Of a stretch of DNA of 42,997 bases, positions 10,254 through 14,057 are shown piece after piece. A program made the position numbers and the translations under genes. How positions within the stretch are numbered: position 1 is the first letter of the stretch; each line of letters begins with the position of its first letter. The notes beneath the pieces were generated by a model. That model was given only the letters and a program-made list of their open reading frames with translations. It ran no database searches and had not been told where the DNA came from. This DNA is from a virus (Duplodnaviria > Heunggongvirae > Uroviricota > Caudoviricetes), in the IMG/VR virus record IMGVR_UViG_2563366800_000007. One strand, written 5' to 3'.

Positions 10254-11162
10254 ATGTCAAATACCGCTGAAATAATCAATTTCCCAAATAAAACCGAACA
10301 ACCGGGAGGTCGTATGGCCGACCTGTCGAACGGGTATACCAAGGTCGCTAACGAGATCCAACAGCTTAAGCCTCGCCTGAGACTGTCAGGCCGGGAATGG
10401 CAATGTTTTGAGGCGGTGATCTGGCTTACCTACGGCTGGAACAAGAAACAGGACCGCGTGACAAATACGGTTATTGCCGAGCTTACGGGCCTGAGCGATA
10501 CGCATGTATCGGACGCGCTTAAGTCTCTCGCAGAACGCAAAATCATCTTTTCACAGAAGCAGGGCATGATGAAAATCGTCGGTGTAAACACTGACCTTTC
10601 AGCATGGATTTTAGACAAACCGGAAACGGGAAGAAAATTCCCGAAAACGGGAAAATCCTTCCCGAAATCAGGAATAACCTTCCCGAAAACGGTAGACACC
10701 CAATACAAGAACAAGAACAGTATTAAAAGATCTTCGTCCGAGAATTCTGACGAATCCTCTGACGCACGTCTGAAGAAATTTTTATCAACTCATCCTGAAG
10801 CTGCGGTCTACACACCATCCGGTGCGAAGTGGGGCTCTGCTGAAGACCTCGAGACAGCTAAGTGGATTTCCTCCAGGGTGAAGCTGATTAACCCAACCTG
10901 CAAAGCCCCGGACATGACCTCCTGGTCTAACACTGTTCGCCTGATGCGCCAGATAGACAACCGGTCGCACCAGGACATCTGCGCGCTGTATGACTGGGCT
11001 AGCAAACACCACTTCTGGCAGACCAACATCCTGAGTCCCGAAAGCCTGCGTAAGCAGTGGGACAAGCTGACAATGCAGCGTAACGCCGGAGGTGAGCAGC
11101 GCGCTGTCAAGCCAGATCTGGACTTCAACAACACTGACTGGGCCTATGGGGTGATCCGATGA
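10254..11162 (+). CDS. Replication initiator, lambda O-like replisome organiser
   Basis: N-terminal LSGREWQCFEAVIWLTYGWNKKQDRVTNTVIAELTGLSDTHVSDALKSLAERKII is typical of the phage replisome-organiser domain; contains in-gene iterons; followed by a P-like gene. Start at 10254 (GGAGAA upstream). Confidence 0.8.
   Translation: MSNTAEIINFPNKTEQPGGRMADLSNGYTKVANEIQQLKPRLRLSGREWQCFEAVIWLTYGWNKKQDRVTNTVIAELTGLSDTHVSDALKSLAERKIIFSQKQGMMKIVGVNTDLSAWILDKPETGRKFPKTGKSFPKSGITFPKTVDTQYKNKNSIKRSSSENSDESSDARLKKFLSTHPEAAVYTPSGAKWGSAEDLETAKWISSRVKLINPTCKAPDMTSWSNTVRLMRQIDNRSHQDICALYDWASKHHFWQTNILSPESLRKQWDKLTMQRNAGGEQRAVKPDLDFNNTDWAYGVIR
10617..10700 (+). repeat. Origin iterons: four direct repeats of about 21 bp (core CCCGAAAACGG) inside the O-like gene
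   Basis: Read directly: ccggaaacgggaa / cccgaaaacgggaa / cccgaaatcaggaa / cccgaaaacggta at 21-bp spacing, encoding the repeated FPKTGKS / FPKSGIT peptide; an AT-rich stretch follows, as at lambda ori. Confidence 0.6.
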
Positions 11163-11848
11163 AATCTCTTGCAGAGCAGATGCGTAACCACGACCGCGAG
11201 CAGATGAGCCGCATGGCCCATAACCTGCCAGAGCAGTACCAGGAGTGCGCGCCGGTCGAGCAGGTGGCGCAGGTATTCAACAAGCTGTTCAACGAGCTGC
11301 GCGCCGCGTTCCCGGCCAGCATGGCGAACTTCCGCACCCAGGAAGACCTGAACGAATTCCGCCGTCAGTGGCTGCTGGCGTTTCAGGAGAACGGGATCCA
11401 CACCATGGCTCAGGTCGATGCCGGCATGCGCATTGCCCGCCGCCAGGAGCGCCCATTCCTGCCGTCGCCGGGCCAGTTCGTCGCCTGGTGCAAGCAGAGC
11501 GGCGGCGCGCTGGGCGTCAACGTTGACCAGGTGATCGCCGAATACTGGGACTGGCGTAACCGCTCGTTCGAATTCATCTCCAGCGAGCAATTTCCATGGT
11601 CGCAGCCGGTCATGTACCACATTTGCGTAGAATTGCGCCACCGCAGCACCGAGCGCCAGTTAACGCATGGTGAACTGGCACGCGAGGCAGGCGATCTGCT
11701 GGACATGTGGGAAAGGCGCGTCACCGAGGGTAAGCCAGTGCCGCCGGTACGCCGGGCTATTGCCGCACCAGCTGCCGAGCAAGGGCCGACGCCGATCCAG
11801 CTGCTGCTGGCCAAGTACAACCGCAACAAGTCGAACGGGATGGTGTGA
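11159..11848 (+). CDS. Replication protein P-like (DnaB helicase loader)
   Basis: 229-aa product matches lambda P over its length by recall (AEQM.N.DREQM.R.A.N.PEQY...VQQVAQ..N..F..L...FPAS.AN...RRQW.LAF.ENGI.TM.QV.AGMR.ARRQ.RPFLPSPGQFVAWC). Confidence 0.85.
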   Translation: MKSLAEQMRNHDREQMSRMAHNLPEQYQECAPVEQVAQVFNKLFNELRAAFPASMANFRTQEDLNEFRRQWLLAFQENGIHTMAQVDAGMRIARRQERPFLPSPGQFVAWCKQSGGALGVNVDQVIAEYWDWRNRSFEFISSEQFPWSQPVMYHICVELRHRSTERQLTHGELAREAGDLLDMWERRVTEGKPVPPVRRAIAAPAAEQGPTPIQLLLAKYNRNKSNGMV

Positions 11849-11849
11849 C

Positions 11850-12090
11850 ATGAACATAACAATCCGTGAGCAGGTGCTGGCAGCCCTGCGCAACAACCCA
11901 GGGTTGAACAACGCCAAACTGGCAGGGCTTCCCGGAGTGGTACATCATCGATCAGGACTATCGGGGGCAGAAGTACGCGAAGGACAAGCAGGTTGCGCGT
12001 TGTGGCAACGCAGTTCCGCCGCCATTCGCCGAGGCACTGGTGAGGGCTAATTTACCGGAGCTTTGTCAGCAGAAAGAGATCGCAGCTTAA
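11850..12090 (+). pseudogene. Remnant of a C5-cytosine DNA methyltransferase (3-prime end only, no in-frame start)
   Basis: One frame encodes ...EWYIIDQDYRGQKYAKDKQVARCGNAVPPPFAEALVRANLPELCQQKEIAA, the C-terminal block of C5-methyltransferases, preceded by a stop; an overlapping 67-aa ORF in another frame has no recognisable similarity. Confidence 0.5.
12031..12090 (+). repeat. Direct repeat copy 1 (methylase 3-prime end), partner at 12619..12678
   Basis: 60-bp segment gaggcactggtgagggctaatttaccggagctttgtcagcagaaagagatcgcagcttaa, about 85% identical to the downstream copy. Confidence 0.6.
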
Positions 12091-12151
12091 TGTCCGAGTT
12101 TCAGAACATGGTGTAACAAATCCTGCTACTTCAATGACGTAGATTCAAACC

Positions 12152-12160
12152 TGATATAAT
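12152..12160 (+). promoter_or_regulatory. Extended -10 promoter candidate (TGaTATAAT) for the 12190..12426 gene
   Basis: TGnTATAAT motif about 30 bp upstream of the start codon; a leader hairpin (aggctc ... gagcct) would pair with part of the GAGGAG Shine-Dalgarno. Confidence 0.4.
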
Positions 12161-12189
12161 TAGGCTCTTCACAACACGAGGAGCCTAAA

Positions 12190-12426
12190 ATGCACCATTA
12201 CATGATCCCTATCAACGGAATTGTTCACCTGATCAAGACTGACTCTCTAATCCCTGAAGGGACTGAGTATAGCTTTGAAGGAGAAAGTCTAATCTGCGCT
12301 CATGCCACTTTTAAATCTGGGACGTATGGCTTCCTGATACCAAAGGGAAATCAGTTGAATAGAGAGCATGCGTTCTGGCATGTAAGTGGAATTCACCCTA
12401 ATCCCCTGGGAATGGATAAATCGTAA
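12190..12426 (+). CDS. Hypothetical 78-aa protein (orphan moron gene)
   Basis: Strong GAGGAG Shine-Dalgarno 7 nt upstream of the ATG; AT-rich; no recognisable motifs (MHHYMIPINGIVHLIKTDSLIPEGTEYSFEGESLICAHATFKSGTYGFLIPKGNQLNREHAFWHVSGIHPNPLGMDKS). Confidence 0.5.
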   Translation: MHHYMIPINGIVHLIKTDSLIPEGTEYSFEGESLICAHATFKSGTYGFLIPKGNQLNREHAFWHVSGIHPNPLGMDKS

Positions 12427-12434
12427 TCCATAAT

Positions 12435-12471
12435 ATGCATGCCATCGTCCTGAACATACGGTGGCATGCAT
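12435..12471. other. 13-bp near-perfect inverted repeat (ATGCATGCCAtCG - n11 - CGgTGGCATGCAT)
   Basis: Read directly, 9 bp downstream of the stop of the 78-aa gene; 12 of 13 arm positions pair; no U-run follows. Confidence 0.5.
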
Positions 12472-12618
12472 CCGGCACTACAACAGAAACGTTAAAGTGC
12501 AAACAATACAATTCGAGCAATATTCAACCTGTCACAGATGGCGAATACCACCGCCATTTCGTGCATTCTGTGGTTTCTATTACCCATTGCGTTAATGCTG
12601 TCCAATCATCAGCTCGCT

Positions 12619-12678
12619 GAGGCGCTGGTTAGGGCTAACCTACAGGAGCTTTGTCAGCAGAAACAAATAGCGGCGTAA
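12619..12678 (+). repeat. Direct repeat copy 2 (degraded methylase 3-prime end with a frameshift)
   Basis: gaggcgctggttagggctaacctacaggagctttgtcagcagaaacaaatagcggcgtaa; encodes ...LAEALVRANLQELCQQKQIAA out of frame with the upstream ...HCVNAV segment. Confidence 0.55.
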
Positions 12679-12785
12679 TAAAACATCGCTAATTCAACCC
12701 GCTACGGCGAGTTTTCTTTTTTTACTACTGACAGAAAATTAACAATTTGTGCTCTTAAAGCGTTGATCATTTCCGCGCATAGGTA

Positions 12786-12805
12786 TACTGTATAAAAACA
12801 CAGTA
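12786..12805. promoter_or_regulatory. LexA box (SOS operator) upstream of dinI
   Basis: TACTGTATAAAAACACAGTA fits the CTGT-n8-ACAG consensus; 19 bp upstream of the dinI start. Confidence 0.75.
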
Positions 12806-12823
12806 AATGCAATGGGGGCCATT

Positions 12824-13057
12824 ATGAAAGTTGAATTAACCATTGATCGCATGAAAGAACTTCCTAAAGGCGCAGTACCAGCACTGGAGAAAGAACTGCT
12901 TAAGCGCCTGAATGATCACTATGACAATTGCAGGCTCACAATCCGCCGTGCCGGGGCCGATGGGTTAAGTGTTTTTGGTGGTGACAAGGACGATAAAAAG
13001 AAAATTGAATCAATCCTCCAGGATACCTGGGAAAGCGCTGACGACTGGTTTTATTAG
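12824..13057 (+). CDS. dinI: DinI-family DNA-damage-inducible protein
   Basis: MKVELTIDRMKELPKGAVPALEKELLKRLN...ESILQDTWESADDWF matches the DinI pattern (…ISEILQETWESADDWF); LexA box upstream. Start 12824 (track ORF begins at 12812). Confidence 0.8.
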   Translation: MKVELTIDRMKELPKGAVPALEKELLKRLNDHYDNCRLTIRRAGADGLSVFGGDKDDKKKIESILQDTWESADDWFY

Positions 13058-13174
13058 AATTGCGCTTAAGGCTGGCGCGCATTTTTCAGAATACCGCAAT
13101 TTGCGTAACCCTCTGATGCTGCTGCCGACAATCTTTAATCGCGTCTGTTAGTCGCTCGAAGGGAGAACATAAAT

Positions 13175-13423
13175 GTGAGTGATTCAGCTTTGCAAACGTC
13201 AGAAGACAACTGGTATGACATTGTAAGAAGGTCTGACGGCTGCGTGGTGTTTAGCTTTCCTTCATCGGGCAGGCATCTAATTTATCGCGTCAATGGCATG
13301 GTTTCTATGCGGCCTTTGCTGGATGATGAAGAGGTCTTTACTCCTAATGGTTTTATGCAGTTTATTCACCGTCTCGGCTACCGGGTAACCCCACCTTCTG
13401 ATAATATGAAATCAACGGTCTGA
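13175..13423 (+). CDS. Hypothetical small protein
   Basis: 82-aa ORF with GTG start, GGGAG about 9 nt upstream; no recognisable motifs. Confidence 0.4.
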   Translation: MSDSALQTSEDNWYDIVRRSDGCVVFSFPSSGRHLIYRVNGMVSMRPLLDDEEVFTPNGFMQFIHRLGYRVTPPSDNMKSTV

Positions 13424-13457
13424 ACAACCGTAACCTACTGCGCCACGGAGAGAAACC

Positions 13458-14057
13458 ATGGCGCACGAACTACAACTCATCAAGCATTCCTCAGGAATCC
13501 TGATCCCCGCTACGCCGGAGACCAGTGATTTACTGCAATCAAAAATCAAACTCGGCTCCGTACTGGTGGCTGAGTTCCGGCAGGTACGCAACCCGGCCTT
13601 TCACCGTCGTTTCTTCGCGTTACTCAATCTCGGTTTCGAATACTGGGAACCCACCGGCGGGGCAATCTCCTCCAACGAACGCAAGCTGGTAACCGGCTAT
13701 GCCAAGTTCCTTGCCTCATTCGCGGGAAGTGAAGCAGCACTCCTGGATGCTGCTGAGCAATATCTGGACCGCATCGCCGATAAGCGTACTGGTAGCATCT
13801 GCGCCTGTAAGTCATTCGATGCATATCGTGCATGGGTCACTATTGAGTCCGGCCATTACGACGCCATTCAGCTGCCTGACGGCACCCTCCGCAAACATCC
13901 CCGCAGTATCTCATTCGCAAATATGGATGAAACTGAGTTCCAGCAGCTGTACAAAGCCGCGCTCGATGTTCTGTGGCGATGGATACTCTCCCGATCATTT
14001 CGCAGTTGTGAAGAGGCAGAAAACGCCGCCGCCCAGCTGATGAGCTTTGCGGGGTGA
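13458..14057 (+). CDS. Conserved lambdoid nin-region protein (DUF1367-like)
   Basis: 199-aa product (MAHELQLIKHSSGILIPATPETSDLLQSKIKLGSVL...FANMDETEFQQLYKAALDVLWRWIL) resembles proteins found between replication and Q genes in enterobacterial prophages; assignment from recall. Confidence 0.6.
   Translation: MAHELQLIKHSSGILIPATPETSDLLQSKIKLGSVLVAEFRQVRNPAFHRRFFALLNLGFEYWEPTGGAISSNERKLVTGYAKFLASFAGSEAALLDAAEQYLDRIADKRTGSICACKSFDAYRAWVTIESGHYDAIQLPDGTLRKHPRSISFANMDETEFQQLYKAALDVLWRWILSRSFRSCEEAENAAAQLMSFAG

Follow-up and report, generated by a model that had tools for sequence, protein, structure and literature searches.

The window, that is, the whole stretch of 42,997 nucleotides that was analysed, is a mEp237-like lambdoid prophage of E. 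coli. Positions 11600-13450 matched a prophage of E. coli PCP06171 at 100% identity and, save for one gap, Enterobacteria phage mEp237 (NC_019704) at 99.5%. The gene order in this part was YdaT-like, O-like and P-like genes, the methylase-tail region discussed below, dinI, an 82-aa gene, ninB/DUF1367, ybcO and rusA, and the region is a variable accessory slot that lies between the replication genes and ninB, or the nin region. The P-like gene marks the left edge of this variable region. The DinI family (PF06183) was recognized at 91.6 bits against a cutoff of 24.2, with profile positions 1-63 of 63 matched, and the site upstream of dinI fits the LexA consensus, CTG-N10-CAG. Rfam gave no RNA family within 11500-13500, a literature search on mEp237 returned nothing about the methylase-tail region, and a scan of GTDB genomes by peptide patterns yielded no confirmed relative. 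Relatives were collected by exact-sequence look-ups and by an IMG/VR scan with the 78-aa protein encoded in the region, which gave 29 viral loci and several assemblies, and methylase ORFs in them were located by tblastn with the intact 712-aa enzyme of locus L011. The features of the region are as follows.

11159..11848, plus strand: replication protein P-like gene (ORF; identical E. coli prophages and mEp237 annotate it as 'replication protein P').
11850..11930, plus strand: codons 1-27 of the ren-like winged-helix gene that is gp44 in mEp237 (100% identical to positions 1751-1831 of L001).
11922..11930, no strand: junction of a 718-bp deletion with 9-bp microhomology, GCAGGGCTT (prefix and suffix alignment to mEp237).
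11923..12090, plus strand: methylase pseudogene 1, the last 55 codons and stop, with motif GNAVPPPF (tblastn).
12026..12091, plus strand: repeat copy 1, the tail of methylase pseudogene 1 (repeat search).
12113..12160, plus strand: putative moron promoter block (alignment of nine loci including a variant of 41% identity; promoter annotated in mEp237).
12152..12160, plus strand: extended -10 element, TGATATAAT (sequence reading; promoter annotation of mEp237).
12161..12189, plus strand: 5' leader with an 11-bp hairpin containing the GAGGAG ribosome-binding site (RNA fold).
12190..12426, plus strand: 78-aa putative moron gene, mEp237 gp47, phrog_30079 (ORF).
12435..12471, plus strand: hairpin with a 14-bp stem just 3' of the 78-aa stop (inverted repeat with 14-nt arms; RNA fold).
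12538..12613, plus strand: old and heavily decayed section of methylase pseudogene 2, covering roughly codons -46 to -21, ...DGEYHRHFVHSVVSITHCVNAVQSS (in-register identity).
12614..12679, plus strand: repeat copy 2, the last 20 codons and stop of a second methylase allele (repeat search and tblastn).
12698..12726, plus strand: terminator-like hairpin and T-run 3' of copy 2 (sequence reading).
12786..12805, plus strand: LexA box, TACTGTATAAAAACACAGTA (upstream of dinI).
12824..13057, plus strand: dinI-family gene (Pfam DinI, E = 3.8e-26; annotation in relatives).

A preliminary description of this locus, made from the letters and ORFs of the window, had noted two segments of ~60 bp with ~85% identity. 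The pair is real and was measured as a direct repeat of 66 nt with 83% identity, the copies being 588 nt apart (E about 1e-13 in BLASTN between the two tails). We found that both copies are methylase 3' ends, as had been proposed, since tblastn aligned each of them to the C-terminus and stop of an intact enzyme. With the 715-aa methylase of Klebsiella phage 5 LV-2017 as reference, positions 11923-12087 matched residues 661-715 (50/55 identical, 91%; E = 2e-33) and copy 2 matched residues 696-715 (15/20 identical, 75%; E = 9e-06), both alignments reaching a stop codon. With the intact enzyme of L011, pseudogene 1 shared 96% identity over residues 658-712; the GNAVPPPF motif precedes copy 1 and no in-frame start codon was found for this pseudogene, which agrees with what had been described. 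Besides, the longer methylase remnant of mEp237 matched PF00145 at 3.9e-07. These alignments indicate that both tails are 3'-terminal remnants of a gene for a large phage C5-cytosine methyltransferase (PF00145). What is left of methylase in the window amounts to the last 55 codons on the copy 1 side and about 46 decayed codons on the copy 2 side, and the set of motifs that characterizes a functional C5-methyltransferase (motif I, PC of motif IV, ENV of motif VI and GNAV of motif X) was not found complete. The two tails also differ in their affinities: copy 1 reads PPPF...QQKEIAA, as in L011 and L026, and copy 2 has Leu before AEAL and ends in QQKQIAA, as in a stub of KL53 described below.

The corresponding genes of mEp237 are gp44-gp48, in which gp46 is annotated as a methylase C-terminus, gp47 is the 78-aa gene with its promoter and gp48 is DinI. 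Unlike mEp237, the window lacks 718 bp of this segment, comprising the 65-aa gp45 together with the greater part of both the ren-like gp44 and gp46. When the window was aligned to mEp237 from the left and from the right, the two alignments overlapped by exactly 9 bases with a length difference of 718 nt, and in mEp237 GCAGGGCTT is found at each end of the stretch that the window is missing; this is a classical microhomology deletion. Both mEp237 and E. coli CUWW10 have the undeleted form, and the full-length ren-like gene matches HTH_24 and phrog_142 'Ren-like'. In mEp237, gp46 consists of the last ~122 methylase codons, being annotated as 'similar to C-terminus...' and treated as a pseudogene in PGAP. 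Because gp46 was already truncated at its 5' end in mEp237, the methylase was destroyed in two steps, neither of which involved the cassette between the tails. The earlier view that the methylase had died through deletion was thus borne out, with a 5' truncation common to mEp237 and the 718-bp microhomology deletion as the lesions. The ATG at 11850 is not that of the methylase; it starts the ren-like gene, which the deletion fused out of frame to the methylase remnant. PGAP calls the chimeric ORF at 11850-12050 a 66-aa hypothetical protein, and this ORF is an artefact of the deletion fusion.

The second remnant had been taken to be only 60 bp long and frameshifted. It extends over about 140 nt, with upstream similarity that is in register and weak but significant; a frameshift does exist, as a 1-nt insertion at about 12612 in the window, upstream of copy 2, and the tail itself is intact. 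In L027, L028 and L011, which are without the extra base, the methylase frame is continuous with the tail and runs back for at least 32-48 codons (DGEYHRHFVHSVVSITHCVNAVQSSLAEAL... against DQDYRGKKYAKDKQVARCGNAVPPPFAEAL...). When compared with eight functional alleles in a fixed register without gaps, the upstream 78 nt of the stub were 40-45% identical (shuffle p 5e-5 to 1.5e-3), and it is this test, together with a C.NAV motif, that points to homology of the upstream stub with methylase. The last 60 nt were 63-82% identical to the same eight alleles (75-82% for seven of them). The contrast in identity between the tail and the upstream stub gave Fisher p values between 8e-7 and 0.011 according to the allele, and among the functional alleles themselves it was the upstream part that was better conserved (85% vs 77%). 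Such a sharp contrast means that the two parts of the stub have different histories.

Comparison of cassettes with different cargo gave a similar picture. Where dinI follows the cassette, the tail was 89-100% identical to that of the window; where other cargo follows, it was 80-82% identical. For the upstream stub, most haplotypes of either cargo group showed 87-90% identity to the window. L027 and L028, with an upstream stub 99-100% identical to that of the window, were nearly identical to it throughout. Homology between cassettes with different cargo ended at the stop codon of the tail. Recombination between phages had been one of the possibilities raised initially, and it is the best explanation for the second tail, as tail identity goes with the downstream cargo. 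The second tail is unannotated in mEp237 and in RefSeq E. coli genomes.

The stub lies in a stretch that might instead have been kept for a new role, either coding for a small membrane peptide or serving the moron or dinI as a regulatory or transcript-end element. An ATG-initiated ORF with a hydrophobic stretch occupies 12538-12678 (46 aa, MANTTAISCILWFLLPIALML...), having been put in the frame of the tail by the 1-nt insertion, and 6 of 7 substitutions between the window and L011 were synonymous in this frame by a hand count. The tail is also better conserved than the upstream stub, with a terminator behind it. However, L033 no longer has the ATG, a deletion has removed the 5' part in L007 and L030 is frameshifted; an indel alters the C-terminus between haplotypes; no Shine-Dalgarno sequence precedes the ATG; and NCBIfam and Rfam gave no match. 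The conservation of the tail is explained by exchange with functional methylase alleles, although selection on the tail could be responsible instead. On balance a retained role is quite unlikely. We also rejected the more specific possibility that 12538-12678 is a conserved gene resembling type I toxins, given the start loss, deletion and frameshifts in relatives and the lack of a family. A longer ORF of 80 aa (12435-12678) is open in L027 and L028 but is interrupted by stops in L011 and L007.

The second tail is also found in prophages that have no cassette. There, a tail 89-99% identical to copy 2 precedes dinI, and the methylase stub to which it belongs has been cut at various points:

KL53, before dinI: stub of 32 codons, VARCGNAVPPALAEAL...QQKQIAA, no cassette.
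ECCWS199, before dinI: stub of 25 codons, no cassette.
SEN34, before dinI: stub of about 19 codons, no cassette.
ES7, before dinI: stub of about 16 codons, no cassette.

In Klebsiella phage 5 LV-2017 the methylase is intact and a dinI homologue lies directly behind it, again with no cassette. Since dinI is preceded by variously cut methylase stubs in the absence of the cassette, copy 2 is the left end of the LexA-controlled dinI module, and it is probably a relic of an ancestral adjacency of methylase and dinI. A terminator-like hairpin lies 3' of copy 2. In mEp237 and most aligned DinI-bearing haplotypes this has the perfect stem CCCGC-TACG-GCGGG, a few haplotypes having other single changes; in the window a G-to-A change at 12710 is predicted to weaken it, and neither the scan nor the RNA fold picked up the version at 12698-12726 in the window. 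Another possible origin of the repeats is that slippage in a single phage duplicated the tail in tandem, the copies then diverging and the moron entering between them afterwards. The repeats are indeed direct, in the same orientation and derived from one gene end, but each tail corresponds to the allele of a different methylase lineage (KL53-like vs L011/L026-like), copy 2 travels with dinI in cassette-free phages and the moron is found behind methylase in loci with no duplication, all of which makes a slippage origin very improbable.

Between the tails lies the 78-aa gene. Both the orphan ORF (12190-12426) and the extended -10 element (TGATATAAT at 12152-12160) that had been reported for it are present. 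The ORF was intact in all 9 of the distinct haplotypes examined, and the gene was 94-100% conserved vs 81-91% for its flanks; substitutions were too few for dN/dS to be informative. Homologues with ~40% identity keep 18 invariant residues. An AF2 model of the protein had a pLDDT of 83, and its fold had no match in the PDB or viral-model (BFVD) libraries. No match was detected in Pfam, NCBIfam or PADLOC, and an exhaustive phmmer search of 1.8 billion representatives returned only small homologues; the other phmmer matches, to repeat proteins, were rejected as spurious, their E-values being inflated by multiple stretches.

The 48 nt at 12113-12160, within which the perfect extended -10 sits, were almost invariant across nine loci, whereas divergence is seen on both sides, in the methylase tail and in the coding sequence; the P0005 variant, which lies in another context, also has this block in front of it. 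This near-invariance, together with the promoter annotated in mEp237, argues for the earlier suggestion of a cargo gene driven by its own promoter. A strict two-hexamer promoter scan flagged neither TGATATAAT nor any other promoter. In the H6-type variant, a shorter stem of different sequence appears from the alignment to be kept over the ribosome-binding site. The 13-bp palindrome of the preliminary description was also recovered, with its dimensions revised to an inverted repeat with 14-nt arms at 12435-12471. As RNA, this hairpin folded at -21.8 kcal/mol (z = -4.1) and had no U-tract; it is partly conserved among cassette haplotypes and is possibly a 3' stabiliser or a weak terminator. The H6 and L048 versions of the moron carry canonical terminators, and the first canonical terminator in the window lies past copy 2 and is weakened.

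The preliminary description further supposed that the rearrangement had left a new small gene. This is contradicted by the distribution of homologues. For example, in E. coli H6-type loci (L006 and L037-L040) a 41%-identical homologue lies behind an intact methylase, with its own terminator and with no second tail, and in L047, a metagenome prophage, a 40%-identical homologue follows a 657-aa methylase, likewise with no second tail. L048 has a 39%-identical homologue in an unrelated context near xis/int, and the same promoter and leader stand in front of it (...GATGACGTAGATTTAAACTTGATATAAT...CACAACACGAGGAGCC..ATG). The gene is absent from M172-1-, KL53- and ECCWS199-type prophages and from Klebsiella phage 5. 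Thus, it is variably present and occurs in more than one context, behind methylase in many loci and near int/xis in L048. Morons are autonomous promoter-gene-terminator units added to phage genomes; a paper on them is 'The moron comes of age' (PMC3594210). Like morons, the 78-aa gene has a conserved predicted promoter, a strong ribosome-binding site, a hairpin 3' of the gene and several phage contexts, and judging from these sequence features it is a moron, an independent transcription unit with a putative promoter of its own. It would survive in the window because of this putative promoter and the ribosome-binding site.

Unlike typical morons, three divergent variants of the 78-aa type share one position, immediately 3' of the stop of a large C5 methylase. 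This shared position hints at either a preferred site or a functional link, and it points to a small protein family habitually found behind large phage C5 methylases. It is rather unlikely, in our estimation, that this 75-78-aa family (phrog_30079 and its ~40% relatives) and the large orphan phage C5 methylase are functional partners. Such a partner may, for example, inhibit methylation-dependent type IV (McrBC/Mrr-like) restriction provoked by the methylase, or may regulate the methylase. If this were true, the partner gene would have been kept on its own promoter even once the methylase was lost.

The cassette has itself been lost from some prophages. E. coli M172-1 has the same P gene, 718-bp junction and 55-codon remnant as the window and no cassette; its single tail is a hybrid that follows copy 1 up to ...CGCCGAGGC and copy 2 beyond. 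In GPEC60-12-649 the cassette has gone in the same way, and the switch falls about 40 nt further to the right, within GGAGCTTTGTCAGCAGAAA. Of 5,426 complete E. coli genomes, 31 were of the window type, 1 was of the mEp237 type and 4 had lost the cassette. Since the four cassette-less genomes share the 718-bp junction, the loss was secondary, and the hybrid tails suggest that it happened at least twice, or once with subsequent gene conversion. Exchange with another phage, rather than intramolecular deletion, could in principle have produced these four genomes.

The differing crossover points fit homologous rather than site-specific recombination, and they weigh against the idea that the cassette is a small site-specific mobile element which targets the methylase 3' end and brings a replacement tail. 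The geometry does resemble an attL/attR duplication of a gene 3' end with diverged copies, and the moron with the same promoter is found in at least two unrelated contexts. However, no recombinase ORF is present in or beside the 588 bp, the only ORF within it encodes the 78-aa protein, which has no recombinase-like fold, and the crossovers that removed the cassette have no fixed core. Besides, H6-type loci have methylase and moron without a second tail, and the second tail is found on dinI, with varied truncation points, in cassette-free prophages. We therefore consider such an element very unlikely. Integrating elements, such as e14 and phage 21 at icd, duplicate the 3' end of the target gene. 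The present locus is like these in that foreign DNA lies between two diverged copies of a gene 3' end in direct orientation, with the gene made complete by the upstream one; it is unlike them in having no integrase and no fixed crossover site, and in that the downstream copy belongs to the dinI module and not to the original target. Integron-attC and integrase-type readings were rejected as no recombinase or attC-like features were found, and so was a diversity-generating retroelement, as the region has no ORF of reverse transcriptase size and the 11 differences between the copies span all base types.

The preliminary description blamed the loss of the methylase in part on insertion of the cassette, and it counted intact methylases in related prophages as evidence against its own reading. 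Complete methylase ORFs (627-716 aa) were found in L011/L012/L034, L027, L028 and L026/L041, in all of which the 78-aa gene and a second tail lie within about 100 nt of the methylase; in L026/L041 the cassette is 100% identical to that of the window and is followed by dinI. Related prophages with an intact methylase therefore exist, in the unexpected form of loci where the cassette is present as well. That the 78-aa cassette was inserted into the methylase and inactivated it, the two tails being the result, is extremely unlikely: two methylase tails do bracket the cassette and the methylase here is non-functional, but an intact methylase ORF of 627-716 aa, with this cassette and second tail immediately behind it, is present in at least six loci, copy 1 is itself a whole tail that ends at the normal stop codon, and the inactivating lesions map elsewhere (the 5' truncation and the 718-bp deletion). 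Deletion with inter-phage recombination, the general class of explanation that had been offered, was right, and the role given to the cassette in it was wrong.

Taken as a whole, these comparisons make it highly probable that the region arose through four recombination events in a mEp237-like lambdoid accessory slot. The first would have been an unequal illegitimate crossover between two collinear phages, one carrying methylase and moron and the other methylase and dinI, with methylase, moron, second-methylase stub and dinI as the product; this founding event and the early order are a reconstruction. Later homologous exchanges in the GCTCGCTGAGGCGCTGGT/AEAL block may have replaced the downstream cargo and, along with it, brought in a fresh tail, which would have come from phages where that tail was part of a working gene, and the upstream part of the stub would meanwhile have decayed. 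In the second event, shown by comparison, the functional methylase was cut to its last ~122 codons in the mEp237 lineage. In the third, shown by the alignment to mEp237, the lineage of the window underwent the 718-bp deletion between 9-bp direct repeats that left 55 codons and no start. The fourth is seen in relatives, where the tails are still recombinogenic and crossing-over between them deletes the 588-bp cassette.

The junctions of lambdoid mosaics reportedly arise in two stages, first an illegitimate recombination and then homologous exchange at short sequences that are conserved at the edges of genes, a view associated with Hendrix and Casjens and with the studies of Juhala et al. (2000) and Clark et al. 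(2001). The present locus is like such junctions in several respects: homology breaks at gene ends (here at the stop codon of the second tail), different cargo is found behind the same short sequence, the stubs are of varied length and the locus is in the early-right accessory region, from the replication genes to ninB. Unlike the usual lambdoid linkers, the linker here is the last ~20 codons of a real methylase gene, a pseudogene stub, and also unlike the usual case there is direct evidence of secondary loss between the stubs. The region is thus textbook lambdoid mosaicism combined with moron biology, in unusual detail and with no new mechanism, and it offers a traceable case of the building and erosion of lambdoid accessory regions with steps caught in relatives. 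It also presents problems for annotation, in that the chimeric 66-aa ORF is called, the second methylase pseudogene goes unannotated and the conserved 78-aa gene is missed, PGAP not calling it in window-type prophages.

The sequence around the 78-aa moron, a candidate accessory gene lying between two methylase tails, contained several small elements in the window and in related prophage loci, as follows.

Window 11850-12050: 66-aa “hypothetical protein” WP_001299077.1 (RefSeq/PGAP)
Window 12113-12160: near-invariant 48-nt block 5' of the moron
Window 12161-12189 (about 3070-3098 in L006, the E. coli H6-type locus): 11-bp ribosome-binding site hairpin of the 78-aa gene
Window 12538-12678: 46-aa ORF that encodes a hydrophobic helix and continues in frame into the methylase tail
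Window 12698-12726: terminator 3' of the second tail, with a G-to-A stem change (A at 12710)
Window 12786-12805: perfect LexA-box-like palindrome, TACTGTATAAAAACACAGTA
Window 13175-13423: 82-aa gene between dinI and ninB (phrog_340)
L011 1509-1766, L026 1764-2021 and L047 1693-1953 (loci with an intact large C5 methylase): 85-86-aa ORF 5' of the methylase
L046 1858-1949 (E. coli ECCWS199), opposite strand: annotated tRNA-Ile gene

The 48-nt block was almost invariant among loci, with flanking coding sequences just 77-83% (nucleotide) or 41% (amino acid) identical, and was also found 5' of a 39%-identity homologue in another genomic context (L048). It includes CTAC-N9-GTAG, and may hold an operator in addition to the promoter. 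The hairpin that follows encloses the moron's ribosome-binding site, and transcription from the gene's own predicted promoter likely starts inside the left arm; therefore, transcripts reading through from upstream could be translationally silent for this gene, and promoter-proximal ones not. By reading of the sequence, the H6-type variant retained a shorter stem with different bases.

Downstream of the second tail, the terminator stem reads GCGAG in the window, whereas mEp237 and most relatives have GCGGG. The substitution is predicted to weaken the terminator, so that greater read-through from the moron into dinI could occur. The TACTGTATAAAAACACAGTA palindrome overlaps the putative dinI promoter, so the prophage dinI copy is probably SOS-regulated.

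With regard to annotation, WP_001299077.1 is a chimera of 27 ren-like codons followed by the methylase remnant read out of frame, and originated from the 718-bp deletion relative to mEp237. The conserved 78-aa gene was not called by PGAP in window-type prophages. Conservation of the 46-aa ORF does not extend to all haplotypes, and it is probably not a gene; its counterpart in L011-type loci has 30 aa and ends in RSLRRW.

A second conserved small neighbour of the methylase is the 85-86-aa ORF, which was always located 5' of the intact large C5 enzyme and overlapped the methylase start; no Pfam match was obtained for the copies in L011 and L047. The 82-aa phrog_340 gene, likewise without a Pfam match, accompanied dinI in E. 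coli, SEN34 and mEp237. In the related prophage of ECCWS199, tRNA-Ile occupied the same accessory slot, immediately upstream of the dinI module.
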